Below are positions 7,397-56,921 of a stretch of DNA of 64,000 bases, piece after piece. Source of the stretch: Abditibacterium sp. (GTDB taxonomy: Bacteria > Armatimonadota > Abditibacteriia > Abditibacteriales > Abditibacteriaceae). Location: the NCBI GenBank assembly GCA_965246885.1, contig OZ251992.1, positions 2,112,001-2,176,000 on the forward strand, read 5' to 3'. The position numbers and the translations under genes are program-made. Under the pieces are notes generated by a model. That model did no database searches and was not told where the DNA came from. It saw only the letters and a list, made by a program, of their open reading frames with translations. Every line of letters begins with the position of its first letter. Position 1 is the first letter of the stretch.

Positions 7397-7564
7397 GAAA
7401 AGTTGACCGAAACAGGCGGAAAGACGACCGTAACACGCGGAAACGTAATAGCAATACGCGAAAAGTTGACCGTGTCGCGTGAAAAGTTGACCGTGACACG
7501 CGGAAACATAATAGCAATATGCGAAAAGTTGACCGTGCCGTGCCGAAAGATGACTGAATCGGCG
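7397..7564. repeat. 21-bp-period degenerate tandem array A (8 units)
   Basis: Units such as gaaaagttgaccgtgacacgc and ggaaacataatagcaatatgc at exact 21-bp spacing, with a 63-bp higher-order duplication. Confidence 0.9.
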
Positions 7565-7567
7565 GCT

Positions 7568-7600
7568 TTCACGCTCAAAGCGCGCCCGTGAGGGCGCTTT
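7568..7600. repeat. 33-bp direct repeat, left of the TA module
   Basis: ttcacgctcaaagcgcgcccgtgagggcgcttt; 32/33 identical to 8233-8265; contains a hairpin. Confidence 0.9.
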
Positions 7601-7630
7601 GATGTCGCAATATCCGGTAAAATCTCTCGC

Positions 7631-7837
7631 ATGAATACAGTCATGGTCTCGCCAGAGTTTCAAGTAGTCATACCGCTTGAGGTTCGCCTATCGCTCGGCA
7701 TCGAGCCGGGGCAGAAAGTGCAGGTCATTCAATACAATAATCGTGTTGAACTCATCCCCGTGCGCCCCATAGAGCAAGCGCGCGGAATGTTGAGGGGGAT
7801 TGACACCCACATCGAGCGGGAAGGCGACAGAAGATGA
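7631..7837 (+). CDS. AbrB/MazE/SpoVT-family antitoxin
   Basis: VSPEFQVVIPLEVRLSLGIEPGQKV swapped-hairpin signature; ATGA overlap with the PIN gene. Confidence 0.9.
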   Translation: MNTVMVSPEFQVVIPLEVRLSLGIEPGQKVQVIQYNNRVELIPVRPIEQARGMLRGIDTHIEREGDRR

Positions 7838-8208
7838 ATGTCGTGGATTCTTCTGGCTGGCTGGAATACTTCGCCGACGGCCCAAACGCGGATTTCTTCG
7901 CGGGCGCAATTGAGAATACGCAAGAACTGGTTGTTCCCAGCATCAGCGTTTACGAAGTGTTCAAGCGAGTCCTTCAACAGCGAGATGAAGAGGCCGCACT
8001 TCAGGTAGTGGCGCTCATGGCGCAAGGCCAAGTTGTGGATTTAGACCAGACGTTGGCGTTGAGTGCGGCTAAAATCTCCAGCGATTTGAAGATACCGATG
8101 GCTGACAGCATCATTCTGGCGACGGCTCGCGCTCACAAAGCGATTTTATGGACGCAAGACATAGACTTGGCGGGCATCGAGAACGTCCGCTATATCGCTA
8201 AAAAGTGA
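7834..8208 (+). CDS. vapC: VapC-family PIN-domain toxin
   Basis: VVDSSGWLEY, YEV, ADSIILATA, LWTQD acidic PIN residues. Confidence 0.92.
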   Translation: MNVVDSSGWLEYFADGPNADFFAGAIENTQELVVPSISVYEVFKRVLQQRDEEAALQVVALMAQGQVVDLDQTLALSAAKISSDLKIPMADSIILATARAHKAILWTQDIDLAGIENVRYIAKK

Positions 8209-8232
8209 CCAACACCGCCCTAATCATCGGAC

Positions 8233-8265
8233 TTCACGCTCAAAGTGCGCCCGTGAGGGCGCTTT
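8233..8265. repeat. 33-bp direct repeat, right of the TA module
   Basis: ttcacgctcaaagtgcgcccgtgagggcgcttt. Confidence 0.9.
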
Positions 8266-8467
8266 TTCGCCATAAATTGTGCCCTAACAAGCATCGTGAG
8301 TGGGAGAATGTCGCAGTCGGCAGAGGCTGCCAATGTGCGCTATACTTCCTCGCCCAACCCGTCGTTATGCCGCAAAAGCGGGTGAATTGACGGCATAACC
8401 CATTGTTGTGTTTATAAGCGCCGCATTGATGGGCACCATACTTGACGCAATCCGGCAACCACTGATA

Positions 8468-9577
8468 ATGAACGAAGATATGATTAACCAAAAGTTATTT
8501 GTGTGTCAGTTCAAAAAACTGAGTCCGATTGCCACTCTATTGATTTTTGCAGCAAAGCCTTTGCACGGTCAATCACAGGCTCTTATACCGGATGCCACCG
8601 TGCTTTCTGTCGCTTTTTCTCCAGATGGAAAAGTGCTGGCGGCTGGTCAGGATGAAGTAAGTCGTGAAGTAAGAGGGAGATATTACTTCAAGCGAGGGCA
8701 ACTACATCTATGGAACTTGCAAACCTTGAAGCTGGGGTGGATACGTACTGACTTGCCGTTCACTGCGGTTAATCTCGCCTTTTCACCGGATAGCCGAACA
8801 ATAGTCGCTGGCAATCTACATGATATGAGATTATGGAATGTGCAAACGGGCGAATTGGTGAGTCACTTGTTTGGGTTACAATCAGCTAAGCCAATGGATG
8901 AAGTCAATACAGTGGCTTTCTGGCCTGATAGCAAGACAATCGCTTTTGGGGGTCTGAGCTACGGCCCTACCACTACATCTCAAGTGTTTTTATATAACGC
9001 TTCGACGGGTCGGCTCCAGCGAAAGCTTCAATACAGATTCATAACCCTCAATCGAGCAGTCTGGGCAACTGCATTATCTCCAAATGGCAGAATGGTAGCT
9101 ACCAGCGTGTCAAGACCCGGCTCGGAATCAGAAGGGAGGGATCCTAACTTGTCCCGCTCTTTGCCTAAAGATGCTGAAGTGTGGGTTTGGAATACCTCCG
9201 GGCAACTAAAGCACGTTTTCAAGAGCCAACAGCGCAGCACGTCCATTTTACTCTTCTCGCCCGATAGCCAGATGTTGGCTGGCACAGACTACGGTGCAAA
9301 AACCATCCACATATGGAACGTGCAGACGGGGAAGTTGTTGCGCACTCTCACAGATACGTGTACAGTGCAGACTGTGGCCTTCTCACCTGACGGAAGAACA
9401 CTCGCCAGTGGAAGTTCTGAGTTTGGTGGTAAGCCAAAACTCTGGAACATTCAAACCGGTAATGTTTTGCGGACTCTAAATTATAGCGATTGGGTGATTT
9501 CATTGGCTTTTTCGCCGAACGGTCGCACGCTGGCAATTGGGGGTTACGAAGGCGTGAAGTTGCTGCGGCTAAAGTAG
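8468..9577 (+). CDS. WD40-repeat beta-propeller protein, probably exported; start uncertain
   Basis: Repeated (SV)AFSPDG..LA.G...(L/I)WN..TG motifs; visibly lower GC than the flanks. Confidence 0.88.
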   Translation: MNEDMINQKLFVCQFKKLSPIATLLIFAAKPLHGQSQALIPDATVLSVAFSPDGKVLAAGQDEVSREVRGRYYFKRGQLHLWNLQTLKLGWIRTDLPFTAVNLAFSPDSRTIVAGNLHDMRLWNVQTGELVSHLFGLQSAKPMDEVNTVAFWPDSKTIAFGGLSYGPTTTSQVFLYNASTGRLQRKLQYRFITLNRAVWATALSPNGRMVATSVSRPGSESEGRDPNLSRSLPKDAEVWVWNTSGQLKHVFKSQQRSTSILLFSPDSQMLAGTDYGAKTIHIWNVQTGKLLRTLTDTCTVQTVAFSPDGRTLASGSSEFGGKPKLWNIQTGNVLRTLNYSDWVISLAFSPNGRTLAIGGYEGVKLLRLK

Positions 9578-9767
9578 TTCAGCTTGTGAAGTGTCAAACA
9601 GCGACACAACAAAGCGTCGCCGCACCCCCTGCTTTCCGCTCGTTGCTCGCTTCGGTTGTCGCTGTTCAGCGATAAGGACTTTGCGGCGCCGTTTGGCCAT
9701 TTCATCGCTTCTTTTCCCAAACGGCGCAGCTTTATTTATTCCACCGCGCCGCCAAGGAGCCAAAACT

Positions 9768-10574
9768 ATGAACGCAGGACAGCAGCGCCGCGTGGCGCTT
9801 TTGGGGCGGGTGAACCAGTTCTCACTCAGCCACCCAAGCGGTTTTCCCGACGGGAGTCAGGCCAAGACCTACATTGACGAAGTGAACAATTGCCTTTATG
9901 TCGCGGGCAAGTTTGGCACGCAGCAAACATCGGGCAGCCATCAAGCCAAAGCCGCGACCGCGCAAAAGAAGATGGGGGCAAAGCAACTGCGCGCGAACCT
10001 CGCGCAACTGGTGCAAACGGCGCAGCAAGCCTTCAAAGGACAGCCGCAAATCGAAAAGCGGTTTCGGATGCCGCAAGGCGGAACGCACAAGCTGTTTAAC
10101 GCCGCCAACGCCCTCGTCGCGTTATGCACCCAATACCGACCGCAACTCTCGGCCTACAACCTGCCGCCCGACATGGAAGCGCGCATCAACAACAGCCTGA
10201 ACGTGATGCAAACCGCGATGAACACGCAAAGCGCGGGCGGCCAAACTCGTTCGGGCGGCACCAAGACGCTCGAAATGTGTCTACGAAAGGGCTTGTCCAG
10301 TGTGCGCTCGCTCGACCCGATCATCAAGAACGCTTTCGCGGGCCAAACCGACATCTTGGCGCAGTGGGCCACCGCCTCGCGCCTCCAAGCCGCGCCCAAA
10401 CGCCAGCCCAAGCCCATCCCGCCCGTGCCCGTGTTTACGATGCTCCCCACCGCGCCGCAACCCGAACCCGCGCGCGTCGAGACGCCCAAACCCGCGCCAT
10501 CTCTGGTTGACCACACCCCGCTCATCCTCGGCGCCAACGGTGTGGCGCTGAATGGCGTGAATGGGCATCGGTAA
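9768..10574 (+). CDS. Hypothetical alpha-helical protein with Pro-rich tail
   Basis: AAGGAG RBS before ATG 9768; normal codon bias; no recognisable catalytic motif. Confidence 0.8.
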   Translation: MNAGQQRRVALLGRVNQFSLSHPSGFPDGSQAKTYIDEVNNCLYVAGKFGTQQTSGSHQAKAATAQKKMGAKQLRANLAQLVQTAQQAFKGQPQIEKRFRMPQGGTHKLFNAANALVALCTQYRPQLSAYNLPPDMEARINNSLNVMQTAMNTQSAGGQTRSGGTKTLEMCLRKGLSSVRSLDPIIKNAFAGQTDILAQWATASRLQAAPKRQPKPIPPVPVFTMLPTAPQPEPARVETPKPAPSLVDHTPLILGANGVALNGVNGHR

Positions 10575-10584
10575 GAAGCATCGT

Positions 10585-10743: not shown

Positions 10744-11430
10744 TTACTCCCGCCAGCCCGCGTAAACCGCGAACAATCCTCGCTTATACACGCACTCGAC
10801 TTCTCCAAATCCGGCGTCCCGCAGCGCGGCGAGTTGCGTTTCGAGCGGGGCGTGTCGGTCTATTTGGCGGCGCTCGATGGCGGTTTGGAGTTCCTCTTCG
10901 CTCGACCCCATGCGGCGGGCGTTAGCGCGCCACTGCGCCTCGAACTGCTCGGCGATGCGCGGCGAAGTGCCGAGGGTCTGGTCGGCGTTGACGAAAACGC
11001 CGCCCGCGCGGAGGGCGCCGTGAATGCGCCCGAAAAGCGGGGCTAATTCCGCCCATTCGAGATGGTGAATCGCCAAGCACGAAACGACCGCGTCGAAGGT
11101 GTCGGGGATGGCGTCGCGCGCGAAATCGTGCGTCAGATATTCAAAGCGCCCGTCGTCGCCGAAGCGTTCGCGGGCGACTTCCAACATTTGCGGCGCGCCA
11201 TCGGCAAGGGTGAAGCGAGCGTTCGGGAAACGTGCGGCCAATTGCGAAGAAAGCAACCCCGTCCCGGCGCCCAAATCGAGGACGCGAAAGTGGGCGTCGG
11301 GCGGGTAATCGAACGCCAATACGTCGCCGACCGCGCCATAAAACCCATCGAAATCGGGCACCAAGCGGCGGCGCGGGGCATCGTAGTCGCGGGCATAAGC
11401 ATCGAACAACTGCGGAGCGGAAGTATTCAT
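10744..11430 (-). CDS. Class I SAM-dependent methyltransferase
   Basis: VLDLGAGTG motif I, FDAVVSCLAIHHL, LRAGGVFVNAD. Start set at ATG 11430. Confidence 0.9.
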   Translation of the reverse strand: MNTSAPQLFDAYARDYDAPRRRLVPDFDGFYGAVGDVLAFDYPPDAHFRVLDLGAGTGLLSSQLAARFPNARFTLADGAPQMLEVARERFGDDGRFEYLTHDFARDAIPDTFDAVVSCLAIHHLEWAELAPLFGRIHGALRAGGVFVNADQTLGTSPRIAEQFEAQWRANARRMGSSEEELQTAIERRQIDRHAPLETQLAALRDAGFGEVECVYKRGLFAVYAGWRE

Positions 11431-11459
11431 CGCCCGAAAGTCTGATGCGGGCGGACGAG

Positions 11460-11606
11460 AGAGGTATTTCTTCGGGCGAGCGACGGAAATCAGCGAGGGA
11501 AACACCGGAACTACCGGCAGAAATCGGTAAATCTTCCGGTGGTTTACCTATTTCTTCGGCTGATTTACGGATATCACCCGGTGACAGAGGTAATTCTACC
11601 GCCGCT
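11460..11606. repeat. 21-bp-period degenerate tandem array B (7 units)
   Basis: agaggtatttcttcgggcgag / atcggtaaatcttccggtggt / ttacctatttcttcggctgat / agaggtaattctaccgccgct in 21-bp register; between divergent genes. Confidence 0.75.
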
Positions 11607-11715
11607 TCACCCCGGCCAAACGCTGCGCGCCGCCCGCTTTTCGTTGGATGGGCGCTGTCAAAATTCCCACTTTTCTGCTGTGTGTTGCGGGCACTTTGTC
11701 GCCCGAATCCACACC

Positions 11716-17407: not shown

Positions 17408-18922
17408 CTAACACAGCTGATACTCCGGGAGGGACACCATCAGATTGATGAGGCCCTGCACCTTGCCCGTTGGCAGTTGTTTCTCCGGCTTGTCGCCGTT
17501 CGCGTATTGCAGGAGGAGCGCGCGCGTTGCGGCGGGCATCTCCATCCCGCGAAAGAGCGCGTTCCACAGCAGGTCTATCGCCTCGTCGGGTGTCGCGGCG
17601 CCGGAGCGCCCGGTCGCGCCAGTCATTCCCCCGGTTGCGCTCATGGTCGGCGCAGCCGCGCCAGTCATTGGCGCGGTCGCGCCAGTCATGGACGGAGCCG
17701 CGCCCATTGTTGACATCGTTGCGCCAGTCATTGACGGGGCCGCGCCCATCATCGGCGCGGTCGGGGCAGCGTTTGCCGCACTCGTGGCGGGTGAGGCGAG
17801 GCCGCGCAGCGTGTCAAGAAGGGAGACGCGGCGGCTCATTTCTTCGGTCAGGCGCGAGGCGAAGTTGACGCGGGCGAGCAGGGTGCGCGAGTTGATCCAG
17901 TCCCGGCCCTCGTTCCAGCCTTTGACGTTGGGCGGGTTGAACAGGTCTTGACCCATGAGGGCAAGCGCGCCGGAGGCTTCGCGCGCGCTGGTCATCGGGG
18001 CGCCGAGGGTCTTGAGCGTCATGACGGTGAACTCCGTCGGGCTTTTGATTTTGGCGAAGCGCGCGGCGGGCGCGTGGAACGCTTCGGATGTCAGCAACAC
18101 TTGCAACACGGAGCGGATGTCGTAGTCGGACGCAAAATAAGCGTCAATCAAGCGTTTGGAGTCAGCATCGGATGGCTCGCCGCCGACGAAGAAGCGGTAG
18201 AGCTTGGTGGTGATGCGCTTGGCGGTCGAAGGGTGACGCGCGAGAATGTCCACCATGTCGTCGGCGTGCCAGTTGCCGGTTTCGCCCAAGACGGTCTTTT
18301 CGCCGTCGTCGTGCAAGCCCGGCTCATACAGGAAGCCCGAAGGCGTGTTCGCGCCGCGCCAGCCGGTGAAAGAGCGCGCGGCTTCTTTGACATCGGTTTC
18401 GGTGTAACCGCCGCCGCGTCCGAGGGTGAAAAGCTCCATCACCTCGCGCGCGAAGTTCTCGTTGGGCGCCCCAGCGTGGTTCTGCGCGCCGTCGAGCCAG
18501 ATGAGCATCGCCGGATCGCGCGCGACTTGTTGGAGCAAGGTGCGGAAACTGCCCAGTCCGAAGCGGCGAAAGGTCTCGTTCTGGTGCCACATCCGCTTGG
18601 CGTCGTAGACCTTGTAGGCTGCCGTTGCGAAGTGGTTGTGCCAGAAGAGCGTCATTTTTTCTTCGAGCGGGCGCGGCGAGTGGGTCATCCGGTAAAGCCA
18701 CCAATTGCGGATGGAGTTGAAATCCTCAAAGTCCACGAAATCGCCGCCGATCTCGCGCTGCATGCGGCCCATCGTGTCCTCGGCGCGTTCGGGGTGGAGC
18801 AGGACGTCGGTCGCCCCGGCGAGGCCCAAGCGCGAGTAAGCCTCCCACTCGGCGGGCGAGGCGCCAAACCCGGCACGGCGCAGGAGGTGGGCGATCTGTG
18901 AATCTTCGGCGGAAAGTGCCAT
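17408..18922 (-). CDS. DUF1800-family protein with a Met/Ala/Thr heptad-repeat insertion
   Basis: HLLRRAGFG, EKMTLFWHNHF, PNENFAREVMELFTLG, PPNVKGW, PEYQLC; usual partner of DUF1501. Confidence 0.92.
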   Translation of the reverse strand: MALSAEDSQIAHLLRRAGFGASPAEWEAYSRLGLAGATDVLLHPERAEDTMGRMQREIGGDFVDFEDFNSIRNWWLYRMTHSPRPLEEKMTLFWHNHFATAAYKVYDAKRMWHQNETFRRFGLGSFRTLLQQVARDPAMLIWLDGAQNHAGAPNENFAREVMELFTLGRGGGYTETDVKEAARSFTGWRGANTPSGFLYEPGLHDDGEKTVLGETGNWHADDMVDILARHPSTAKRITTKLYRFFVGGEPSDADSKRLIDAYFASDYDIRSVLQVLLTSEAFHAPAARFAKIKSPTEFTVMTLKTLGAPMTSAREASGALALMGQDLFNPPNVKGWNEGRDWINSRTLLARVNFASRLTEEMSRRVSLLDTLRGLASPATSAANAAPTAPMMGAAPSMTGATMSTMGAAPSMTGATAPMTGAAAPTMSATGGMTGATGRSGAATPDEAIDLLWNALFRGMEMPAATRALLLQYANGDKPEKQLPTGKVQGLINLMVSLPEYQLC

Positions 18923-20408: not shown

Positions 20409-21851
20409 ATGGAACAAACGCCCTTCGACCCTTTCAAAGACGCCGCCTCCGCTTCCACCTCGGCGCCCGACGCTTCCCCGACGCGCTACGCGCCCTTTGA
20501 TCCGACGGTGCGCGTGGATGCCCTCTTGCCGCCCTCGCGCCCGCAACGGGGGCGCAACCCCGCGCTGTGGGCGGTTCCGCTCGTGGCTCTTCTCGTCGTG
20601 GGCGGAATCGGGTTCTCCGTTTGGCAACGCGGGAAAGAAGAGCGCGCCCGCGAGGACAAGCTGGCCGCTCTGCGCGCCGACATCAAGAAAATCGTCTTGC
20701 AAGACAACGCCCTCATTATGGAACTGCTCGATGACGGCGCCCTCGAACATATCACTTACGCCGAGTTCTTCAAGCGCGCCGACAAGAACAAAGAGCAACG
20801 CGATGAGTTGGTGCGCAACCTGCGCGCGACCGAGACCGGGCCTTATGGCGAAGCCGTCGGGCACTACATCGAATTGCTCGAAACCGAGAACAAATGGGTG
20901 CGCGCCGAAGAAGCCGTTTCCAACGCTTCCCTCGACGCTTCGACGAAGTGGGATACCTACCGCCGCGCCCTTCGCCAAACCGACGATGTAAGCGGGCAAG
21001 TTCAGTCGAGCTACCAAGCGTATCTCGCCGCCCCTTACGGCTACGACTTCGGGGCCAAGATGAACTACGACGCGGCCCGCGCCTCGCTCCAAAACACGAG
21101 CGACGAGGTGCGCGCCAATTTCGCCGCTTGGTCGGACTCGCAAAGCAACTGGAACGACAAAAAACGCGCCGCTTCGGTCGTCATCGCCGACTGGCTGCGC
21201 AACGAGCCGCTTCAATACCTCGGCTGGGCGCCCAAACGGGACGTGGCCCGCTTGCTTATCACCCGCAAAGCCGACTACGCGAGCGCCCCTGCGGTCGGCA
21301 ACGCGTCGCCAAAAGCAAGCGCGAAGATCGTTCCCGTTGAAGCGAAAGACGCCCCCACCGATGCGGGCGCCCTTTCGCCCACCCGCATTCGCGCCGCCAA
21401 ACCACTCGATGGCGAACGCTTCTCCGCCACGCGCATGGAAGACTTGGGGGAGGACTACGCGTCCAACCTGAGCGACGCCGATTTGCGCTACGCCATCAAC
21501 GAAATGTACGCCCGCTACGGCCTCACCTTCCACGATAAGTCGCTGCAATCCCGGTTTGAAACGACGACGTGGTATCACCCCAACGACAAATGGACTATCG
21601 GACAAGTCAAAGCCGCCTTCTCGAAGCGCGAGCGCGACAACCTCGACGCGTTGGTGTCCGAACGCGACTCGCGCCGCGACAAGAATGACGAGAGCAGTAA
21701 CGACAACTCCAACGACAACGCTTCCGACAACGCTTCAAGTGATAATTCGGACGGGAGCGACAACTCAAGCGCCGACGGCAACGAGTCAAGTGACAGTAGC
21801 AACGACGGAAGTAGGGGTGCCGGTGGAAGAACTGTGGAATCCGGCGAGTGA
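20409..21851 (+). CDS. Membrane-anchored YARHG-domain protein with D/S/N-rich tail
   Basis: TM helix, helical region, DLRYAINEMYARYGLTF...WY.P motif; GGGGAG RBS. Confidence 0.85.
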   Translation: MEQTPFDPFKDAASASTSAPDASPTRYAPFDPTVRVDALLPPSRPQRGRNPALWAVPLVALLVVGGIGFSVWQRGKEERAREDKLAALRADIKKIVLQDNALIMELLDDGALEHITYAEFFKRADKNKEQRDELVRNLRATETGPYGEAVGHYIELLETENKWVRAEEAVSNASLDASTKWDTYRRALRQTDDVSGQVQSSYQAYLAAPYGYDFGAKMNYDAARASLQNTSDEVRANFAAWSDSQSNWNDKKRAASVVIADWLRNEPLQYLGWAPKRDVARLLITRKADYASAPAVGNASPKASAKIVPVEAKDAPTDAGALSPTRIRAAKPLDGERFSATRMEDLGEDYASNLSDADLRYAINEMYARYGLTFHDKSLQSRFETTTWYHPNDKWTIGQVKAAFSKRERDNLDALVSERDSRRDKNDESSNDNSNDNASDNASSDNSDGSDNSSADGNESSDSSNDGSRGAGGRTVESGE

Positions 21852-21871
21852 GTTACGTGTGTGGGCGCCTC

Positions 21872-24151: not shown

Positions 24152-24236
24152 ATGGCCAAAACAATTGCACCCCTCTTAGCACATTTTTCGCCCTCCTCTT
24201 TCAATGTCTTCAGGCGGCGACTCCACCGCGTACGTC

Positions 24237-24383
24237 CGCGAACCAATGGCCGATGTGTGTCAGACGGTGACGTGCATGAGGCGCTGTTCGACGCGCATGC
24301 GGCGCTGTTCGACGCGCATGCGCCACTGCCCGACACACGCCTGTCAGCGCGCGACAGACATCGGCCATTGGTTCGCCGCTGCC
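24237..24383. repeat. 21-bp-period array C with 24-bp inverted repeats near its ends
   Basis: (a/c)ggcgctgttcgacgcgcatg twice plus degenerate units; 24238-24261 is the reverse complement of 24353-24376 at 23/24 positions. Confidence 0.88.
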
Positions 24384-24788: not shown

Positions 24789-27626
24789 CTACGCGATGTG
24801 GGGGTTCAGCTTGTCCGCGTTGATGCCCATGTCTTGCATGGCGGCTTGGACAACAGGCCATTCCATTTTGCCTTGCTTGGCCAGTTCGCTGAGCGCCGCG
24901 AGAGTAACGTAGCGGGCGTCCACCTCGAAGAAGTCGCGCAGGGCGCCGCGTCCGTCGCTTCTTCCAAAGCCATCCGTGCCAAGGCACGCCATCGGGAGTG
25001 GGACGTATTGGGCGATGCTTTCGGGCAAGGCTTTGACGTAATCGCTCGCGGCCACCACTACGTCCCCGCGTCCCTCCAAGTTTCGTGCGACGAAACTGAG
25101 TTTAGCGTCGTCGCCGGGATGAAGCAGGTTGTGCCGCGCGGTCTGCATGGCGTCGCGGTAGAGTTGCTGGTAGCTCGTCACGCTCCACACATCGGCCTCG
25201 ACGCCGTATTTGAGGAGCATGCCCTGCGCTTTGACGACTTCGTTGAGGATGGTGCCCGATCCGAAAAGTTGCGCGCGCAGTTTGGGGGCTTGGGCGGGCG
25301 CAGAGGCGGGCGCGGCCTTTTGGGTGGCGGCGCGCTTGTTTTTGGACTCGCTCGACACGCCGTCGCCTCCGGTGCCCTCACCGGCTTGCACCATCGCGTC
25401 GGGGGCCTCGGTCGCCCCGGTGCCACCGCCGACGGCTTCGGATGCAGTACGGAAGAGATACATCCCCTTGATGACGCCCTCGCGGATGCCCTCGCGCTCC
25501 GGCATCGGCGGCATGGCGTACTGCTCATTCATGAGGGTGACGTAGTAGAACTCGGAGTGGCCCTCGTGGAACATGCGCTTGATGCCTTCTTGGACGACGA
25601 TGGCCAGTTCAAAAGCGTAGGCGGGGTCGTAGGCTTTCATGTTCGGCACCGCGAAGGCGTTGAGGTGCGAGTGCCCGTCTTGGTGTTGCAATCCCTCGCC
25701 GTTGAGGGTCGTGCGCCCCGCCGTGCCGCCGAGCAAAAAGCCCTTGGCGCGCTGGTCGCCCGCGAGCCAGACCTGATCGCCCACGCGCTGCATCCCGAAC
25801 ATCGAGTAGTAGATGTAAAGCGGAATCATGGGGAGAGAATGCGTCGCGTAGGCGGTGCCCGCCGCGATGAAACTCGCCATCGAACCGGCCTCGTTGATGC
25901 CCTCTTCGAGGATTTGCCCGTTGGTCGCCTCCTTATAATACATGACGTTCTGGCGGTCTACCGGCTCATACAGTTGCCCGATGTGCGAGTAGATGCCAAA
26001 GCGCCCGATTAGCCCTTCCATGCCGAAGGTGCGCGCTTCGTCGGGCACAATGGGAACGATCCATTTGCCCAACTGCGAGTCGCGCAACAGGTTTTGCATG
26101 ATGGTGACCATGACCTGCGTGGTGGAAGGCTGCTTGTCGGATTTGGGGTCGGTGCCGATGAGGAACTGCTTGAAGATTTCATCCGAGGGCGCGGGCAGCA
26201 TAGGCGCGTCTTCGCGGCGTAGCGGGATAGGGCCGCCCAAGGCTTCGCGCCGCTTGCGGACGTACTGGACTTCGGGCGAGTCGTCGGCGGGGCGGTAGAA
26301 CGGCGCCTTTTCGACGGCCTCTTCGCTGATGGGGATTTGGAAGCGGTCGCGGAATTGGCGCAGTTCGGCCTCGTTCATCTTCTTGGCGTTGTGCGCGACG
26401 TTTTTCCCTTCGCCCGCTTCGCCCATGCCGTAGCCCTTGATGGTTTTGGCGAGAATGACCGTCGGGCGCCCCTTGGTTTTGGTGGCGGCGTCGTAAGCCG
26501 CGAAGACCTTGACTGGGTCGTGCCCGCCGCGCCGGATGGTGCGAATTTGCTCGTCGGTCAGTTGCTCGGCCAGCTTGCGCGTGTGTTCGGTCGCGCCGAA
26601 GAAGTGCTCGCGGACGTATTCGCCGGTCGAGACGGTGTATTTCTGGTATTGCCCGTCCACGACGCGGCCCATCTGCTCGACCAAATCGCCGTTGTCGGCT
26701 TCAAGAATCGGATCCCAGTCGCTGCCCCAAATGACCTTGATGACGTTCCAGCCCGCGCCACGAAAGAGGGTTTCTAATTCCTGAATGATCTTCCCGTTGC
26801 CGCGCACCGGGCCGTCCAAGCGTTGCAAGTTGCAGTTGACGACCCAGCAAAGGTTGTCCAGTTTTTCGCGCGCCGCGAGGGTGATGGCGCCGGTTGTTTC
26901 TGGTTCGTCGGTCTCGCCGTCGCCGATAAAGCACCATACGCGCTGCTTGCTCGTGTCCTTGAAGCCCCGGTCTTGCAGGTAGCGGTTGAAGCGCGCCTGA
27001 TAGATGGAGCCAATCGGCCCCAAGCCCATCGAAACCGTCGGGAACTCCCAGAAGTCGGGCATCAGAAATGGGTGCGGATACGACGACAGACCGAAAGTAT
27101 CGCCGCGCAGTTCTTGGCGGAAGTTGGTCAGGTTCGCTTCGGACAAGCGGCCTTCGAGAAAGGCGCGACTATACATTCCGGGCGAGGCGTGGCCTTGGAA
27201 ATAGATTTGGTCGCCGCCGTCGGGATGGTCTTTGCCCTTGAAGAAGTGGTTGAAGCCGACATCATACAGCGTCGCGGACGAGGCGAAGGTCGAGATGTGG
27301 CCGCCGATGGAGTCGTTGAACTTGTTGGCGCGCGCCACCATCGCCATCGCGTTCCAGCGCACGATGTTGAGGATGCGCTTTTCCATTTCCAAATCGCCGG
27401 GAAAGTCGGGCTGCTGGTCGGGCGGAATGGTGTTGACGTAGGGCGTGTTGAACGTGAAGGGAATCTGCACGCCCTTCTTGGCGGCGTGCGCTTCGAGTCG
27501 CTCCAACAGTTCGCCCGCGCGCTCTGGCCCCGCGCTGTGCAAAACATAGTCGAGCGAATCGAGCCATTCCTGATTCTCGATGGCATGAAGGTCGGCGGAA
27601 GCGCCGGGAAGTGCGGAGTTGCTCAT
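24789..27626 (-). CDS. aceE: Pyruvate dehydrogenase E1, homodimeric type
   Basis: GGHISTFAS, FQGHASPG, FPTVSMGLG, GDGETDE TPP motif, NCNLQRLDGPV, GEGLQHQDGHS. Confidence 0.97.
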   Translation of the reverse strand: MSNSALPGASADLHAIENQEWLDSLDYVLHSAGPERAGELLERLEAHAAKKGVQIPFTFNTPYVNTIPPDQQPDFPGDLEMEKRILNIVRWNAMAMVARANKFNDSIGGHISTFASSATLYDVGFNHFFKGKDHPDGGDQIYFQGHASPGMYSRAFLEGRLSEANLTNFRQELRGDTFGLSSYPHPFLMPDFWEFPTVSMGLGPIGSIYQARFNRYLQDRGFKDTSKQRVWCFIGDGETDEPETTGAITLAAREKLDNLCWVVNCNLQRLDGPVRGNGKIIQELETLFRGAGWNVIKVIWGSDWDPILEADNGDLVEQMGRVVDGQYQKYTVSTGEYVREHFFGATEHTRKLAEQLTDEQIRTIRRGGHDPVKVFAAYDAATKTKGRPTVILAKTIKGYGMGEAGEGKNVAHNAKKMNEAELRQFRDRFQIPISEEAVEKAPFYRPADDSPEVQYVRKRREALGGPIPLRREDAPMLPAPSDEIFKQFLIGTDPKSDKQPSTTQVMVTIMQNLLRDSQLGKWIVPIVPDEARTFGMEGLIGRFGIYSHIGQLYEPVDRQNVMYYKEATNGQILEEGINEAGSMASFIAAGTAYATHSLPMIPLYIYYSMFGMQRVGDQVWLAGDQRAKGFLLGGTAGRTTLNGEGLQHQDGHSHLNAFAVPNMKAYDPAYAFELAIVVQEGIKRMFHEGHSEFYYVTLMNEQYAMPPMPEREGIREGVIKGMYLFRTASEAVGGGTGATEAPDAMVQAGEGTGGDGVSSESKNKRAATQKAAPASAPAQAPKLRAQLFGSGTILNEVVKAQGMLLKYGVEADVWSVTSYQQLYRDAMQTARHNLLHPGDDAKLSFVARNLEGRGDVVVAASDYVKALPESIAQYVPLPMACLGTDGFGRSDGRGALRDFFEVDARYVTLAALSELAKQGKMEWPVVQAAMQDMGINADKLNPHIA

Positions 27627-42701: not shown

Positions 42702-45465
42702 ACTTGCTGTTCTCCACCAAGACGCGATAACCCCAAGGTGCCAATTGTAGCGTGGGAGAGGCGTTCAGACGGATGCCCGCGCCGGTGAAGCCGTCGCGGT
42801 AGTTACCCGCGAGTGTATTGGCGCCCAACTTTACGGTTTGGGCGCTCTCGCTCAAGTTGACGGCGACGAAGACGCGGTTGGCGCCGCGCGTGCGGGTGAA
42901 GACGTAGATTTTGTCGTCGTGGTTGGAGGGGATACGGGCGAAGTCGCCCGCCGCGAGTGCGGGCTGGTTTCGATAAAGCGTGAGGAGGGAACGGTAAAAC
43001 GGGTAAACCGGCGACTTAGCGGCGGCGACGGCGTCCGGCGACGGATCAGTTTTGGCGAAGCCGAACTCTTGGCCGTTATACAAGAGCGGCTTGCCGGGGA
43101 GCGTGGCGCACAAAACCATGAGCGGCGCGACTTGCGGCATTCCGGGTTTGGCTTCGACGGCGGGGCCGTCGCCCCACCCCCAATCGGCGTGCGGGTGCCA
43201 GTCGTGGTTATCCAAGAAGCGCATGGGAATCGCGCCGTCGGGTAGGGCGCGCGCTTCGTCACGTAGCGCCTCATCTATGACAGTCGCGGGTTTGCGTCCG
43301 GCGCATACGTCCCACAGAATCGGCGGCAATTTCCAACTATATGTCATGTCGAACGCGGGGTGAACTTCGGCATTGTCGGCCTCGGCGAGCATGAAGATGG
43401 GCTTGACCGCGTCCAATTGCGGGCGAAGCCAGTTCCAGAACTCGACGGGCACGCGCCCGTTGCTGCCGGCCACGTCGCAGCGAAAGCCGTCCACGTCGCA
43501 GTCGCGCACCCACCCCACCATGTTGTCGCGCATCGTGTTCCAAAGCGGGCGGTTCCATTTGCCGCCCTGCCCATAATCCAACTGCGCGGTGTCGGCCCAT
43601 GTGTAAGCCTGCGCAATTTGGCCGTTGCCGTCGTGAACGTAGAATTCGGGATGGGCCTCGATCATCGGATTATCCCACGCCGTGTGGTTGGGCACGAAAT
43701 CCATAATGACACGCAATCCCAGCCCATGCGCCGTAGCGACGAGGTGTTTGAAATCGGCTTTGGTGCCCAGATAAGGGTTGATGGCGGTGTAATCGCTCAC
43801 CGCATACGGGCTTCCGAAGCCTTTCTTGTAGCCGCGCGGGGTAAGCGGCATGAACCACACGATGCCAACTCCCATCGCTTTCAAACCCGGCAAGTGCTTC
43901 TCATATTCGCGGAGCGCCTGTCCTTTGGGGAACTTGTAAAGGTCGAGATTGACTTCATAGATGGGTTGATTCGCGGCCCACGTCGGCCCCGCGACGGCGC
44001 GCGTAGTTAAGGGGCCGTTCATCTTTAGTGGGAGAGAAGCGTCAGTCAAGAGATAAGGTTGGAAACTACGGGCGGCTATTTGGAAGGGGCGGGCGTTGGG
44101 GTGGAGGCCATCGGCGCCGAACTGCTCGGTGCGCGGGCCGTCTCGCAGTTCAAACACGTAGGTTAGGTCTTCCTTGCGGTTCCAAGGGAGGTCGGCGCTA
44201 TAGTAGGCATACAGCCCCTCGCCCTTGACCAACTTCAGGGGGTATTTGGAATGAGAAGACCTGAGCGAAATGTCGCTCAGGTCGTTGGGGCGCGCTCGCA
44301 GGGAAAGGGTAACTCGCCCCCCATCGTAACTGATATCCCTCACGCCGTGCGGGTGGAACAGGGCGCTCGCCGCCGTGATGCCATCGTCGGGACTGGCGGG
44401 GATTTCGTAGCCGACGGGAGTCACTACAAGCAGAGAGTTCACGTTAACTTTGTCCGTCTCGTCGCGCGGCGCGTTCGGGTCGGGAACCCATTTTTCTTCG
44501 TTGTTCGGCCCGAACTGGGCGAACTTATACACGTAGCGGCCCGGCTCAAGCGGCAAACTCAAACGCCACGTCAGGCCGTCGGCATCGGCAACCATCGGGT
44601 TCGCGGTCTTGTTCCAGCCGTTGAAGCTGCCCACGAGAGCCACACCCTTCCACTTCTGGTCGGCCTTGAAGACGAACGGATGTCCGGCGCCATTCGCCAC
44701 AGCAGGCGCGGCGCCATCTGGGGCGGCGACGACGAGCAGGGAGTTATCGTGCGCCTTGTCCGTTTCATCGCGCGGCGCGTTCGGATCAGGAATCCACGTC
44801 TGCTCGTCCGGGGCGAAGGGCGCGAACTTGTAGTCATAACGCCCCTGCGCGAGTGGCACTTCCAAGCGCCACGTCAAGCCGTCCGCATCGGCGACCATCG
44901 AGTTGGCCGTCTTATTCCATCCGTTGAAACTGCCGACTAAAGCGACGGCCTTGAGCTTTTTGTCCGCCTTGTAAACGATGGATTGGGGCACGAGGGTGAG
45001 GAGGGAGTTGTCGTGCGCTTTGTCGGTTTCGTCGCGCGGGGCGGTAGGGTCGGGCACCCACGTTCCTTCTTCCGGGCCAAAGGGCGCGAACTTGTAATCG
45101 TAGCGCCCCGGCGCGAGCGGCAACGCGAGTCGCCAAGTGAGGCCATCGGCGTCGGCGGTCATCGGGTTGGCCGTCTTGTCCCACTTGTTGAAACTGCCCA
45201 CCAAACGCACGGACTTCAGCTTTTTGTCGGCTTTGAAGACGAACGGGTGGGAAACCATACCCTGCGTCGGGGACGTTCCCCACGCGGGCGCTTGTCCTTG
45301 GGCGGGCGTATCGGCGACGGTTTGGAAGTGGCCGCGTTGTCCCGGCGCGGTTTGCGCGAGGGCGGGCGCGGCGGCATCGGGAGAATGATTGCAACCGGTG
45401 GCTCCCAATACCGCCAGCGTGAGAAGCCATGTGCCGATGCGTATTTTGCAGGTGTGTGTGTTCAT
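42700..45465 (-). CDS. Probable lipoprotein GH13 alpha-amylase-family enzyme with three tandem CBM48-like domains
   Basis: Lipobox-like ATGC; three LVGSFN.W...M..DADGLTW.L...L..GRY.YKF...W.PDP repeats; DFVPNH, DGFRCDVA, LAEAD, FLDNHD catalytic regions. Confidence 0.93.
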   Translation of the reverse strand: MNTHTCKIRIGTWLLTLAVLGATGCNHSPDAAAPALAQTAPGQRGHFQTVADTPAQGQAPAWGTSPTQGMVSHPFVFKADKKLKSVRLVGSFNKWDKTANPMTADADGLTWRLALPLAPGRYDYKFAPFGPEEGTWVPDPTAPRDETDKAHDNSLLTLVPQSIVYKADKKLKAVALVGSFNGWNKTANSMVADADGLTWRLEVPLAQGRYDYKFAPFAPDEQTWIPDPNAPRDETDKAHDNSLLVVAAPDGAAPAVANGAGHPFVFKADQKWKGVALVGSFNGWNKTANPMVADADGLTWRLSLPLEPGRYVYKFAQFGPNNEEKWVPDPNAPRDETDKVNVNSLLVVTPVGYEIPASPDDGITAASALFHPHGVRDISYDGGRVTLSLRARPNDLSDISLRSSHSKYPLKLVKGEGLYAYYSADLPWNRKEDLTYVFELRDGPRTEQFGADGLHPNARPFQIAARSFQPYLLTDASLPLKMNGPLTTRAVAGPTWAANQPIYEVNLDLYKFPKGQALREYEKHLPGLKAMGVGIVWFMPLTPRGYKKGFGSPYAVSDYTAINPYLGTKADFKHLVATAHGLGLRVIMDFVPNHTAWDNPMIEAHPEFYVHDGNGQIAQAYTWADTAQLDYGQGGKWNRPLWNTMRDNMVGWVRDCDVDGFRCDVAGSNGRVPVEFWNWLRPQLDAVKPIFMLAEADNAEVHPAFDMTYSWKLPPILWDVCAGRKPATVIDEALRDEARALPDGAIPMRFLDNHDWHPHADWGWGDGPAVEAKPGMPQVAPLMVLCATLPGKPLLYNGQEFGFAKTDPSPDAVAAAKSPVYPFYRSLLTLYRNQPALAAGDFARIPSNHDDKIYVFTRTRGANRVFVAVNLSESAQTVKLGANTLAGNYRDGFTGAGIRLNASPTLQLAPWGYRVLVENSK

Positions 45466-48554: not shown

Positions 48555-48680
48555 GGCGCAGTTAATTCTTCCGTTGGCGCGTGCGCGTCATTCGGTGGCG
48601 CGGCTAATTCTTTTGTCGGCGCGTGCGCGTCACTCACCGGCGCGACCCGGCGACTCGTCGGCGCGGCCCGGTGGATGCTC
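48555..48680. repeat. 21-bp-period array D (6 units, 42-bp alternation)
   Basis: Each unit starts ggcgc; ggcgcgtgcgcgtca and taattctt units alternate; reverse complement matches array E units. Confidence 0.88.
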
Positions 48681-48748
48681 CGCCCGTACGAGTCGAGCGG
48701 AGCCAGAAGCAGGAAAATGGCGGCGCGTGGTTAAACTTCTCCTCTCTC

Positions 48749-52777: not shown

Positions 52778-52795
52778 GATGGGTGGTTCCGACGT

Positions 52796-54241
52796 TTAGC
52801 CGACGCTCCCTTCCAACGAGATGCCCAATAACTTCTGCGCTTCGACGGCGAACTCCATTGGTAGCTCGCGGAAGACCTCTTTGCAAAAGCCGTTGACGAT
52901 CATCGAAACGGCGTCTTCCGTCGAGATGCCGCGCTGATTGCAATAGAAGATTTGGTCTTCCCCGACTTTCGAGGTGGACGCTTCGTGCTCCACTTTCGCC
53001 GTCGGGTTGCGCACCTCGATATACGGGAAGGTATGGGCGCCGCACCGGTCGCCAATGAGGAGCGAGTCGCACTGCGAGAAGTTGCGCGCGTTGTCGGCGC
53101 CCTTGAGCACCTTGACCAGCCCGCGATACGAGTTCTGGCCGCGCCCCGCCGAAATGCCCTTGGAAACAATCGTCGAGCGCGTGTTCTTGCCGATGTGAAT
53201 CATCTTCGTCCCTGTATCGGCCAACTGCGCGTTATTGGTAACGGCGACCGAGTAGAACTCGCCGACGGAGTTATCGCCTTGCAAGATGACGCCGGGATAC
53301 TTCCACGTGATCGCGCTCCCCGTCTCGACCTGCGTCCACGAAATCTTGCTGGACTCGCCCCGGCAGGCGCCGCGCTTGGTGACGAAGTTATAGATACCGC
53401 CTTTGCCGTTCGCGTCGCCGGGATACCAGTTCTGGACGGTGGAATACTTGATGCTCGCCCGCTCCAGCGCGACCAACTCCACGACCGCCGCATGCAGTTG
53501 GTTGGTGTCGAACTTGGGCGCGGTGCAACCTTCGAGGTAGGACACCTGCGCGTCGTCCTCGCAGACAATGAGCGTCCTCTCGAACTGCCCGGAATCCTGC
53601 GTGTTGATGCGGAAGTACGTCGAGAGTTCCATCGGGCACTTCACGCCTTTGGGAATGAACACGAACGAGCCATCCGAAAACACGGCGGAGTTGAGCGCCG
53701 TGAAGTAGTTGTCGGTATGAGGAACGACCGACCCCAAATACTGCCGCACGAGTTCGGGATGCTCGCGCACGGCATCGGAGAACGAGCAAAAGATGATGCC
53801 CAGTTCCGACAGCTTCGCTTTAAACGTCGTCGTAACCGAAACCGAATCGAACACGACATCCACCGCGACGTTAGCAAGGAGCTTCTGCTCTTCCAAGGGG
53901 ATGCCCAGCTTGTTGAAGGTTTCGACGAGCTTCGGGTCTACCTCGTCCATCGAGGCCAACTTGGGCTTTTCTTTGGGCGCGGAGTAGTAGATAATGTTCT
54001 GGTAGTCCAGTTCGGGGTAGTGCGCGTTGAGCCAGTGCGGTTCTGCGAGCGTCGTCCAATGGCGGTAGGCTTTGAGGCGCCAGTCGAGAAGCCACGCCGG
54101 TTCGCCCTTTTTCAGCGAGATGGCGCGCACCACGTCCTCGGACAGGCCGCGCGCAAAGGAATCGGACTCGATGTCGGTAACAAATCCGGCGGTGTATTCT
54201 TGCGAAGCGAGCGCTTCGATGGTCGGTGTTTCGGTGCTCAT
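52796..54241 (-). CDS. sufB: Fe-S cluster assembly protein SufB
   Basis: [52 protein letters not shown]. Start ATG 54241. Confidence 0.97.
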
Positions 54242-54445
54242 AACGACTCGATGGGCTTTGGGAAGCTGCACACAGAGGTTTCCCAAACGGTGCCTTACAC
54301 CCGACACAAACGAAGCGAGACGGTTCCCGCGCCGCCCACAATTCTCCTATTCATTTCGTCGGAATTGACTCTAAAGATGAAACTGCGCCGCTCAAAGACG
54401 GCAGAAGCCGGAACAGAATGTTCCGGCTTCCAACAAACCAAACGC

Positions 54446-54820
54446 TTACGCTGCCTTTGCTTCCAAATGGCGCTCCTGCCGCTCCAAGTCGTGCACCAGC
54501 ACCTCATGGAGGTGCGTTACGTCAATGGGTTTGGGCATGAAGTGCTCGGCGATGCCGTCGGCGATATCGAGGTCGAGGGCGCTGGTTAAAATAACAAGCG
54601 GCGCGTGCGGCATTTTGCGGGCGCGCGCGGCCAGTTCGACGCCGCTCATGCCGGGCATGCGCACGTCGGAAATCAAAAACGCGAACTCCTCGCGCCGCAA
54701 CAAAGAAAGCGCCTGCCACCCGCTCTGAGCTACCGTCACGGTATGGCCTTGACGTCGAAGAGCGATCGCCAACGTCAGCAAAACGTTGGTGTCGTCATCT
54801 ACTAAAAGGATTTGGGCCAT
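54446..54820 (-). CDS. Single-domain response regulator (REC)
   Basis: ILLVDDD, ISDVRMPGMSG, ILTS, KP. Confidence 0.9.
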   Translation of the reverse strand: MAQILLVDDDTNVLLTLAIALRRQGHTVTVAQSGWQALSLLRREEFAFLISDVRMPGMSGVELAARARKMPHAPLVILTSALDLDIADGIAEHFMPKPIDVTHLHEVLVHDLERQERHLEAKAA

Positions 54821-54909
54821 TGCAAATATCACCGCGCACCCGGTCGGTACGCTATGAGAGGCAACGCAAATCAAGTGCCGAGCCGTATCCAAAGTTTCCG
54901 CAGCTACTT

Positions 54910-55449
54910 TTAAGTCCAAAAGCGGCGCCATAAGCGTTGCCATCGGAGGGGCTGGCACCCAGTCGCGCGGCGCTGGCGATTCCATAAACGCACCTGCGCC
55001 CGCAGTTGCGGTTTCATCGGCAGGCCCGCGTAGACCGCATGAACATGTTCGGCACCTTTCCAATGCGGCCCTGTGCGAAACCACGCTATAAAGCCCGCGT
55101 GCGCCAAATCTTCGAGAAACTCGGCGCGCTTACGGGGTGTCAGGTCGTCCACTCCCAAGTCCACCGCCGCACTGTAATCCTCGCCGCCAACCGTGCCGTC
55201 ACGCAGGTGGTACCCCTTTGAACGCGGGTTATTCCCAAGCGTCTGGCCAATGCGAATCGGGCTAATGCCCGCCGCAAAACACGCCCCCCTGAACGCCCGC
55301 CATGCGACGGGCGCCATCCCTGTGGGCCGCTCAAACGGACGCGCGAGGTGGCGCGGCGGCAGAAGTACCCCGACGCGGTAACTGCGCCACCCCCAAAACG
55401 CCACGAGTGCGGCCAGAAGCAGGCAGGAAAAGAGCAAAAAGCGGCGCAC
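54910..55449 (-). CDS. Membrane-anchored hypothetical protein, possible Zn-peptidase (M15/Hedgehog-like fold); start uncertain
   Basis: N-terminal TM segment; GYH...AAVDL and EHVHAVY resemble Zn-ligand motifs. Confidence 0.55.
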   Translation of the reverse strand: MRRFLLFSCLLLAALVAFWGWRSYRVGVLLPPRHLARPFERPTGMAPVAWRAFRGACFAAGISPIRIGQTLGNNPRSKGYHLRDGTVGGEDYSAAVDLGVDDLTPRKRAEFLEDLAHAGFIAWFRTGPHWKGAEHVHAVYAGLPMKPQLRAQVRLWNRQRRATGCQPLRWQRLWRRFWT

Positions 55450-55495
55450 CCGAACAGTTAGACCGCGCGGCGTAAACTGCGACAACCTAATCGCC

Positions 55496-56749
55496 ATGAA
55501 ATTAACCCCAGTCGGCAAATTCGCCCTCTTCCTGCTTCTGCTCGGCGCGCTCGCGGGCGGCCTGCGCTTCTTTGCGCACAAGGCGGGCACCCCCACCACC
55601 GTCACGCAAAACGGCGGCGGCTCGAACGCGGGCACCGGTAGCGGCAATGGTGGCGGCTCGCAAACGGGCACCAATCCAAACGGTGGCGGCACCGGTGGCG
55701 GCGACACTGGCACGGGTCAAGCAGGTGGCGTTGCGGCGACGGTGGGCGCGAACGAGTTGCAAATCGTGACCAGCGCTTCCAAGCGCGGTTGGCTCAACGA
55801 GCAAATAGACAAGTTCAACGCGCAGTCCGACGTGAAGCTCGTGCCCAAACTCGTCGAAACGCGCGAAGCGATGCAGCAGATTTTGTCGGGCCGCCTCAAG
55901 CCCGCGCTGTGGAGTCCCTCGTCCGTCATCTGGGCCGACCGTTTGGCCGAAGTTCTCAACCAGCGCACTGGCTCGTCGCCGCTCGATACCGGCGATCCGA
56001 ACTCCTACCGCTCCGTGCTCAAAACGCCCATCGTCTTTCTGACCACGAAAGAGAACGCCAAGATTCTGCGCCCGCTCCTCAGTTCCGCCGAGTGCTGGCC
56101 CAACGTCCAGAAACTCTCCAAGGGCGACACCCCATTCCCCGGCGGCTTCAAGTGGGCGCACGCCGACCCGCTCAACGCCAACTCCGGCATGCTGACGCTC
56201 GCGCTTATCATCAACGACTACGCCAACCGGACGGGGCAGACCGGCTCGATTCAAAACGTCGCCACATCGGGCGCCTTTCTGGACTATCTGAAGTCGCTGG
56301 AATCGAAAATCGTCTACAACACCGCCGTTCAAAAAGGCTCGTCCGCGCTCGTCAAGTCGTTCACCGAAGACCCGTCGCGCTATTCGTTCATCACCGCCTA
56401 CGAAGCGGCGGCAGTGGAAGCCATCGCGCAAAACCCTGACCTCGCGGTTATCTACCCCAACCCGACCGTCAACGCCGAAAACGCCGTTGCTTTCCTCAAC
56501 TGGCCCGATTTGAACTCACAGCAAAAAGCGGCGGGCCTCGCGTTTCTCAAGTTCGTTGGCACGCCCGCCTCGATGCAAGACGGCCTCAAAGAACACTTCC
56601 GCCCTCTCAAGGGCGCGGGCAACGACCCGCAGCTGGCGGCACTGTCGGGCAACGGCATCGAAACCAGCTACTCGGCCATCGAACTGCCGCCGTACTCGGT
56701 TCTCAACGGCGTGGCGTTCAAGTGGCGCACCGAAATCGCGGGCAAGTAG
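55496..56749 (+). CDS. Membrane-anchored periplasmic-binding-fold protein with Gly/Thr linker
   Basis: TM anchor; PALWSPSS, TPIVF, HADP..ANSG, YE...V, AVIYP resemble the binding domains of vWA-associated solute-binding proteins; no vWA domain here. Confidence 0.75.
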   Translation: MKLTPVGKFALFLLLLGALAGGLRFFAHKAGTPTTVTQNGGGSNAGTGSGNGGGSQTGTNPNGGGTGGGDTGTGQAGGVAATVGANELQIVTSASKRGWLNEQIDKFNAQSDVKLVPKLVETREAMQQILSGRLKPALWSPSSVIWADRLAEVLNQRTGSSPLDTGDPNSYRSVLKTPIVFLTTKENAKILRPLLSSAECWPNVQKLSKGDTPFPGGFKWAHADPLNANSGMLTLALIINDYANRTGQTGSIQNVATSGAFLDYLKSLESKIVYNTAVQKGSSALVKSFTEDPSRYSFITAYEAAAVEAIAQNPDLAVIYPNPTVNAENAVAFLNWPDLNSQQKAAGLAFLKFVGTPASMQDGLKEHFRPLKGAGNDPQLAALSGNGIETSYSAIELPPYSVLNGVAFKWRTEIAGK

Positions 56750-56760
56750 AATCCCCGGCC

Positions 56761-56921
56761 CGCCGTCGTCTGTCGCCGAGCGCCAGACGGGCGCCAACGA
56801 GTGACAGACATGCGCCACTCGCCGCCAGCCGTGCGCCAACCAGTGACAGACGTGCGCCACTCGCCCACACAGGCGCGCCGACGAGTGACGCGCGTCTGTC
56901 GGCCATTGGCGGACGACGGCG
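56761..56921. repeat. 21-bp-period array E (7 units) with short terminal inverted repeats
   Basis: cgccaacgagtgacagacatg / cgccactcgcc.. alternating units; cgccgtcgtc...gacgacggcg ends. Confidence 0.9.

Follow-up and report, generated by a model that had tools for sequence, protein, structure and literature searches.

Constant-size satellites with repeats of 20-23 nt are known from bacteria through the work of Subirana and Messeguer (PMC8161180, PMC6749651, PMC8625621); the portions of these papers covered here note that such a repeat corresponds to two helical turns, propose a polymerising or nucleoid protein and report transcription for 52-nt satellite arrays. They had been described without evidence that separates function from junk. 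The genome of Abditibacterium sp. (G000; 3.56 Mb, two contigs, 62.5% G+C) contains a dispersed family of arrays with a 21-bp period, five of which were noticed by a sequence-only reading of a 64-kb stretch, positions 2112001-2176000 of the 3.48-Mb contig C1 (the window). The class is already known; the mutual exclusion of the arrays is a new measurable property. An exclusion so sharp and independent of sequence means that arrays sense each other over kilobases, which requires a factor acting in trans or selection on the level of chromosomal domains. Genes were taken from our own dicodon model (3,096 genes), so that gene boundaries are approximate.

Catalogue and spacing of the arrays

The genome possesses 276 periodic segments at lag 21 and 0-30 at each other lag from 4 to 41, so that lag 21 stands out alone in the genome-wide autocorrelation proposed by the sequence-only reading. 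Higher multiples yield 213 segments (lag 42) and 156 segments (lag 63), and those at lags 64-67 are the product of a CRISPR array. At a score of at least 20 there are 285 lag-21 arrays, 213 of them intergenic, compared with 33 at lag 18, 22 at lag 24 and 1-3 at lags 19, 20, 22 and 23. A profile search finds 245 loci. For the analysis of spacing, profile matches, intergenic periodic arrays and subfamily members were merged within 400 bp into a catalogue of 297 arrays on C1 (mean gap 11.7 kb), of which 42 lie in genes; the second contig, C2, holds six arrays in 72 kb. The median array length is 163 bp (5-95% range 111-214 bp).

The arrays of C1 keep apart from each other. Their gaps have a coefficient of variation (CV) of 0.515, compared with a minimum of 0.78 under three null models of 2000 replicates each; the 252 intergenic members have a CV of 0.56, with a minimum of 0.77 across six stricter nulls. 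Regularity is slightly higher in bases (0.52) than in genes (0.58). Gaps below 4 kb number 12 of 296, compared with 26-29% in the nulls, and among the 240 profile-only matches there is one; a 40-kb jitter test predicts 78.9 such gaps, with a minimum of 57 in 5000 jitters. Occupancy of long intergenic regions is 3-6% at less than 4 kb from another array and 18-19% at 4-6 kb, and farther out reaches 45%, 60% and finally 74% at 10-20 kb. The pair correlation is 0.12 at 0-4 kb, 0.63 at 4-6 kb and about 1 beyond, with no oscillation to 60 kb. The spacing is a short-range hole, not a lattice.

This exclusion is not driven by homology. The main profile rejects 57 arrays, some of which may be false members of minor subfamilies; 10 of them have a main array less than 4 kb away, compared with 52% of random points. 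Control loci of the same genome show no exclusion: 158 loci resembling repetitive extragenic palindromic (REP) sequences have a CV of 1.20 with 26% of gaps below 4 kb, and 204 strong hairpins have a CV of 1.03. Hairpin loci are not displaced from arrays either (64% vs 58% within 4 kb), and competition between cruciforms was rejected as the cause of the spacing on this ground. A better profile fit goes with a greater distance to the neighbours (rho 0.27, n=252).

Between lysE and anmK (C1 1501574-1502371) the spacing rule is broken: four 21-bp arrays of different subfamilies share one intergenic region of 800 bp. As a single observation, the dnaN-recF-parAB region (C1 460068-486179) forms a 26-kb gap without arrays although it contains seven long intergenic regions; no dnaA was recognised beside dnaN. 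Five other large array-free gaps that were inspected are gene-dense.

Unit anatomy and the arrays of the window

When the axis of each array is determined from its own inverted matches, with no comparison across arrays, it is strong in 131 of 290 arrays and in 34 of 290 column-permuted controls. The pooled profile of the main family begins with a 10-base arm, followed by C or G at the centre (0.90) and by the same arm inverted. It recovers the own axis in 114 of 132 strong arrays, from which it was built, and in 55 of 158 weak ones (chance 1 in 21); 204 of the 290 arrays pass the profile threshold. The best-conserved positions are a G six bases left of the centre and a C six bases right of it (0.76), and the same positions vary least between adjacent units (0.23-0.24 vs 0.33-0.55). 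Each unit has two symmetry axes. The four-base and three-base boxes recognised by the sequence-only reading are one half-site on opposite strands.

Since the main unit is two-fold symmetric, orientation is meaningless for arrays B-E of the window, and the common orientation to gene starts that had been attributed to four arrays is not upheld: when 115 co-directional arrays are aligned in the direction of transcription, their profile equals its own mirror image, without strand polarity. Gaps are occupied at an equal rate whether co-directional (153/790), divergent (63/300) or convergent (34/146). Equal rates and the lack of polarity point to an element acting at the level of DNA. In co-directional gaps the arrays tend to follow stop codons closely (median 16-29 bp).

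The phase is kept without a reading frame. The absence of indels noted for the window extends to 126 intergenic arrays with 2 indels in 20,651 bp; planted indels were recovered in 40/40 cases. The arms are drawn from a large common vocabulary (749 distinct heptamers in 2,946 half-units), and adjacent arms are seldom perfect complements (17/1473 and 19/1269). Hairpin potential is modest (57/70 arrays below column-permuted controls), and folding is unaffected by shuffling of units or half-units. Linkage between positions forms blocks of 7+5+7+2 bases with no sharp cut site, and fixed recombination breakpoints were rejected. A discrete mobile element, such as a MITE or an SDR-type element, was likewise rejected: the arrays lack defined ends, no terminal repeats (inverted or otherwise), flanking repeats or target duplications were found at them, and solitary units do not rise above control profiles.

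Sharing of k-mers joins 227 of 302 arrays in one component, with 1,490 edges overall compared with 47 among matched intergenic controls, in agreement with the earlier statement that these are not ordinary slippage tandem repeats. There are 16 communities of at least two arrays. Minor subfamilies exist, several of them polar, including that of array A; the main register is clearly preferred by four of seven tested. Identical stretches between loci are mostly shorter than 22 bp in the main family, minor subfamilies have a few longer exact matches (up to 123 bp), and some arrays contain long runs of exact copies. A CRISPR array, which has identical repeats with unique spacers, was dismissed as before: the arrays have no spacers, and the CRISPR repeat of the genome, with about 217 copies, forms a family of its own. 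A translated heptad repeat, named beforehand as an outcome that would overturn the family, does not account for arrays that are mostly intergenic, use all three frames where they lie in genes and have 3.13 open frames compared with 2.96 in controls.

Within the window the following arrays are present (positions of the window):

Array A: 7391..7558, no strand; 8 units, intergenic, upstream of the dihydrolipoyl acetyltransferase gene; five-copy polar subfamily with 63-bp higher order
Array B: 11468..11593, no strand; 6 units in a divergent intergenic region; small symmetric subfamily
Array F: 17593..17781, no strand; 9 units, in frame in the DUF1800 gene 17408-18922(-), about residues 380-443
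Array G: 21752..21856, no strand; weak or decaying, 5 units, 3' end of the YARHG gene; below the catalogue threshold
Array C: 24234..24380, no strand; 7 units, intergenic, downstream of aceE; main family
Array D: 48562..48687, no strand; 6 units, intergenic, upstream of leuD; main family with 42-bp higher order
Array E: 56768..56914, no strand; 7 units, intergenic, beginning about 20 bp past a stop codon; main family

All five arrays of the sequence-only reading (A-E) are real, with a lag-21 identity of 0.51-0.59 compared with 0.16-0.31 at lags 20 and 22, and the higher order of 42 or 63 bp described for several of them is seen in D and in the subfamily of A. The shared register holds as well: A and B, which are outside the training set of the final profile, score above 500/500 shuffles, as do C, D and E, which are inside it. 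The count of five intergenic copies was incomplete, as F and the weak G had been missed. Array F stands in place of an Ala/Met/Pro linker of the DUF1800 protein. Array G scores above 500/500 shuffles with a top-5 profile score of 0.5, and at 2.5 kb from C it is the exception to the spacing within the window. Short-read contigs across A, B, C, E and F show 0 differences from the assembly (A and C in runs X1 and X2, B in the X2 contig 10801-11704, E in the X1 contig 54770-57946); X1 is possibly the source sample, and X2 carries a 3-base insertion elsewhere. Promoter and terminator signals at array E do not exceed shuffles, and an Rfam search of the window returned four tRNAs only. Other repetitive or variable features of the window are a 264-bp tandem duplication (44734-45242; 1.9 copies, 78%) in an alpha-amylase-family gene, and a variable insert of about 50 residues near residue 730-780 of aceE (24789-27626), which contains no 21-bp array; congener aceE has the same length.

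Arrays in genes and in other genomes

Of the profile-passing arrays, 28/204 overlap a gene by more than half. The in-gene arrays use all three frames (8/4/11), and Pfam names UvrA, PrmA, RecG, FtsK, DnaX, a CheA-like kinase, urea carboxylase and DUF1800 among 21 host genes. In PrmA the segment with the array comprises 86 residues here vs 51 in 5/5 congeners, i.e. 35 additional residues or 5x21 bp; measured against 19 further homologs chosen from 120, it comprises 96 residues here, 61 in 13 of them and 60-63 in the rest. The PrmA homolog P0027 has a segment of 117 residues (+56, or 8x7) with a different 7-residue repeat. In UvrA, RecG and the DUF1800 protein a linker was already there, which the array replaces or lengthens, with a net change that is no multiple of 7. 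UvrA, PrmA, RecG and further core proteins acquire new 7-residue repeats from the arrays, which offers proteins a quick way to gain insertions.

Comparisons with near relatives indicate that arrays turn over far more quickly than their flanks but retain site and phase. A sister urea carboxylase at 97.7% identity carries another 7-residue array at the same site, 7 residues shorter, and a sister RecG, 97.3% identical, has no array (69 vs 91 residues). In three proteins that are 98.8-100% identical outside the array (near-identical strain pairs), the array length is kept and the inside differs; in two of the three the differences resemble shifts of whole units. Protein resemblance at PrmA and RecG suggests that arrays may be seeded from host sequence resembling the profile beforehand; 15 empty orthologous sites score at percentiles 0.09-0.92 for such a pre-existing fit.

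The profile search of 1.03 Mb of loci from relatives gives 0 matches; these loci sample all 12 congeners, some thinly, and the closest one, G003, contributes 147 kb including overlaps. A model from 20 array stretches, with 30 candidates scored per genome, finds no array-rich genome among 150 of the phylum and four single weak loci, none belonging to the family. Scans of metagenomes and GTDB for close relatives return only relatives of 49-68%. Run X3 (about 85-91% alike) has no alignment over A, F and E and is silent on array content there. The G+C content is 62.5% here and about 50-60% in congener loci; one 16S gene is present here.

A lag scan free of sequence models detects a second carrier, G053, of the same family and another genus (51% G+C), in which the 677 kb covered (61 of about 410 contigs) hold 28 arrays. 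A strong symmetry axis is found in 13/28 of these arrays vs 14% in controls, and none matches the profile of the present genome. One close pair below 6 kb occurs there vs 5.0 expected (p=0.04; below 4 kb p=0.10), in a test biased toward exclusion because the contigs often end near arrays. In the 51-53-nt arrays of the Bacillus set LFJO01, as given in the supplement of PMC8161180 (81 rows from six contigs, without other repeat sizes and contigs 9-10 onward), 3/75 gaps are below 4 kb, compared with 8.5 in jitters (p=0.016) and 7.2 under uniform placement (p=0.057). Both sets hint at exclusion. The rows given for B. weihaiensis are sparse (1 gap below 4 kb vs 0.9; 21 positions). In G168 no clear array is seen in 60 kb.

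Isolated 21-bp-period arrays also occur in unrelated bacteria (L127:7212-7289, L131:5031-5132 and L312:6399-6458, the last with a single match in its own genome). Degenerate intergenic arrays with a 7-bp period, often with inverted halves, are present in G053 (L362, L376-L435; 19 in 677 kb with apparently random spacing), G168 (L436-L438), G131 (L361) and the metagenome loci L075, L116, L122, L142 and L148.

Explanations and relation to known systems

The earlier proposal of a protein-binding or architectural DNA element is the best reading and is strengthened by the chromosome-scale spacing, after removal of its common orientation to gene starts. We consider it about evenly balanced whether the arrays are docking tracks for a putative protein acting over about 5 kb. 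A protein is favoured because the non-coding DNA of the arrays preserves phase, length and two positions yet leaves the sequence free, because sites persist across sister lineages and better-fitting arrays have larger empty zones, and because no element ends or enzyme were found. Something in trans would read the arrays and act over about 5 kb: a dimeric DNA-binding protein could form a polymer over the 5-10 two-fold-symmetric units of an array, with an effect reaching about 5 kb to either side; a second array in this zone would not be founded or not be kept. The protein would set the period and the two weakly conserved positions, and the arrays would enlarge and reshuffle through in-register duplication and deletion and through strand-switch conversion, in short patches. 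The exclusion distance may mirror a looped or supercoiled domain. The patchy occurrence suggests that the pair of protein and site is dispensable, gained or lost by lineage.

More tentatively, constant-period satellites in general may be a sequence-flexible punctuation, in which a protein would read period and symmetry and place one anchor per topological domain with about 5 kb on each side; exclusion would then also be found in unrelated carriers, such as the second Abditibacteriota genus and the 52-nt satellites of Bacillus. If this is true, such punctuation would drive arrays even into essential genes.

Several observations weigh against the docking tracks. No binder comparable to the cognate proteins of chromosome-organising sites (parS, matS or NBS type) has been recognised: ParB and HU are present once each, as in array-less congeners, with no extra copy, a histone fold is missing from 27 family genomes, and screens of paralog expansions and of small basic proteins by codon bias gave none, the codon-bias screen being uninformative. 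Several minor subfamilies are polar instead of symmetric, and the sampled DNA of twelve congeners has no arrays. Births of arrays appear recent, as the sister RecG lacks one. The pair correlation is flat beyond 6 kb, i.e. there is no long-range order, and a scarcity of intergenic room does not go with more in-gene arrays, so that selection for coverage is not supported. Strong arrays have no surplus of weak intergenic matches around them, and arrays with recent amplification are not closer to their neighbours (23 vs 229, p=0.58); blocking at birth agrees with this as well as purging does.

It is rather unlikely that the arrays are a selfish element with target immunity, in which an enzyme would seed and extend arrays, an occupied array would block seeding within about 5 kb and the host would gain nothing. 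The exclusion profile resembles the cis-immunity of Mu, described in the covered part of PMC7350765 as slow to 2 kb with a sharp rise near 5 kb and the bulk at 7 kb; this match of scale may only show that both mirror the size of chromosomal loops. The missing long-range order, the patchy distribution, the lack of a relic excess near strong arrays and the insertions into UvrA, PrmA, RecG and FtsK suit such an element. It is opposed by the absence of element ends, target duplications and solitary units, by exact sharing between loci that is mostly below 22 bp, and by three near-identical strain pairs that keep array length while units change. Nor does any candidate mobiliser track the arrays, among RAYT-like (REP-associated tyrosine transposase) Y1 genes, three tyrosine recombinases (these only noted), a reverse transcriptase, IS110 and a Mu-type transposase; the Mu-type domain and IS110 were not found. 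The reverse transcriptase is common to 8/12 array-less congeners, and its orthologs of 66-76% in 6/12 look like a conserved system. It measures 479 aa and lies (C1 1313165-1320183) in an apparent operon with 584- and 1252-aa proteins without Pfam match, adjoining vWA and FHA genes. Loss of SbcD was discarded as a cause of the arrays, since SbcD is present.

A transfer drive, with arrays as uptake or packaging signals at one per DNA fragment of about 5-10 kb, like the neisserial DNA uptake sequences (DUS), is improbable. ComEC is present, long-range order is not required, and the covered parts of the literature report a DUS spacing that agrees with how large conversion fragments are (PMC2397512) and an even spacing of uptake sequences (PMC1939737). 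ComEC, however, occurs in 13/13 genus genomes and does not track arrays; a portal gene of phage or transfer-agent type, present in 8/12 congeners, was not found in this genome; arrays also occur in the comM island region; and DUS are short, fixed and non-tandem, whereas the arrays vary in sequence and keep only their phase.

Neutral slippage satellites whose close pairs are purged by recombination or competition for supercoiling, or elements at the RNA level, are very improbable. Long runs of exact copies in some arrays and the modest hairpin potential are in their favour, but slippage yields no single period, and unrelated subfamilies repel each other while the far more similar REPs do not; slippage is already contradicted on period and on controls. 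Undisplaced hairpin loci, folding that survives shuffling and the equal occupancy of divergent gaps also disagree. Least probable, and largely refuted, is a miniature bacterial interspersed mosaic element (BIME) of alternately inverted half-sites made by RAYT-type HUH enzymes: BIMEs have a symmetry like that of the arrays, the arrays tend to follow stop codons and the genome has four RAYT-like genes, but each of these is flanked by its own hairpin repeat family (some of these families with 20-60 dispersed copies) and by no array, Y1 genes are present in 11/12 array-less congeners, adjacent arms almost never pair perfectly and REP-like loci are spaced at random. The four short Y1 genes are located at C1 10546-10974, 567.4-567.8 kb, 1335092-1335535 and 1930464-1930880; a fifth, weaker one (C1 1381397-1382014) has the mod and res genes of type III restriction on either side.

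The RPE of Rickettsia and the SDR elements of cyanobacteria (21-27 nt) are in-frame palindromic inserts at tolerant loops of conserved genes. They are discrete elements, whereas the arrays are a remixing tandem insert with no solitary units above background. SDR5 is mentioned in the covered part of PMC5861425. The REP, BIME and REPIN elements with their RAYT, as far as described in the covered part of PMC3733652, are likewise dispersed, symmetric and often just past stop codons, and true REP-type families occur here too; the arrays differ in having no conserved or stable stem-loop unit, no tagged end and no cognate RAYT flanked by the repeat, and in their strict period and non-random spacing. 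HIP1 and uptake sequences share a genome-wide, non-random spacing at the kilobase scale and are argued to serve chromosome architecture or DNA transfer (covered parts of PMC5861425, PMC2397512 and PMC1939737), but they are fixed 8-10-mers, and the periodicity of 18-94 kb given for HIP1 (PMC5861425) contrasts with a short-range exclusion without periodicity. With Mu cis-immunity, according to the same portion of its source as above, the arrays share the scale of exclusion, but have no Mu-type transposase domain, ends or target duplication.

In the literature covered, which lies outside the 2020 J Bacteriol and SDR papers, no report was found that such arrays exclude one another or that Abditibacteriota possess these arrays. 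An exclusion distance of 4-5 kb, with the bulk by 6-7 kb, is a number checkable in any complete carrier genome, and two carriers among many non-carriers in one family provide a handle for finding the responsible gene. The arrays are closest to the 20-23-nt satellites, with which, judged by the covered portions of those papers, they share the constant 21-nt period, variable sequence with several species-specific families per genome, a mostly non-coding location, a short common signal and a patchy taxonomy. The density differs, at about 85 arrays per Mb by our own looser criteria compared with at most 36 21-nt arrays per genome in the published 20-21-nt list, by different methods. Beyond the satellites as described there, the present arrays possess two symmetry axes per unit, exact in-frame growth by 21n in housekeeping genes and an exclusion over 4-5 kb.

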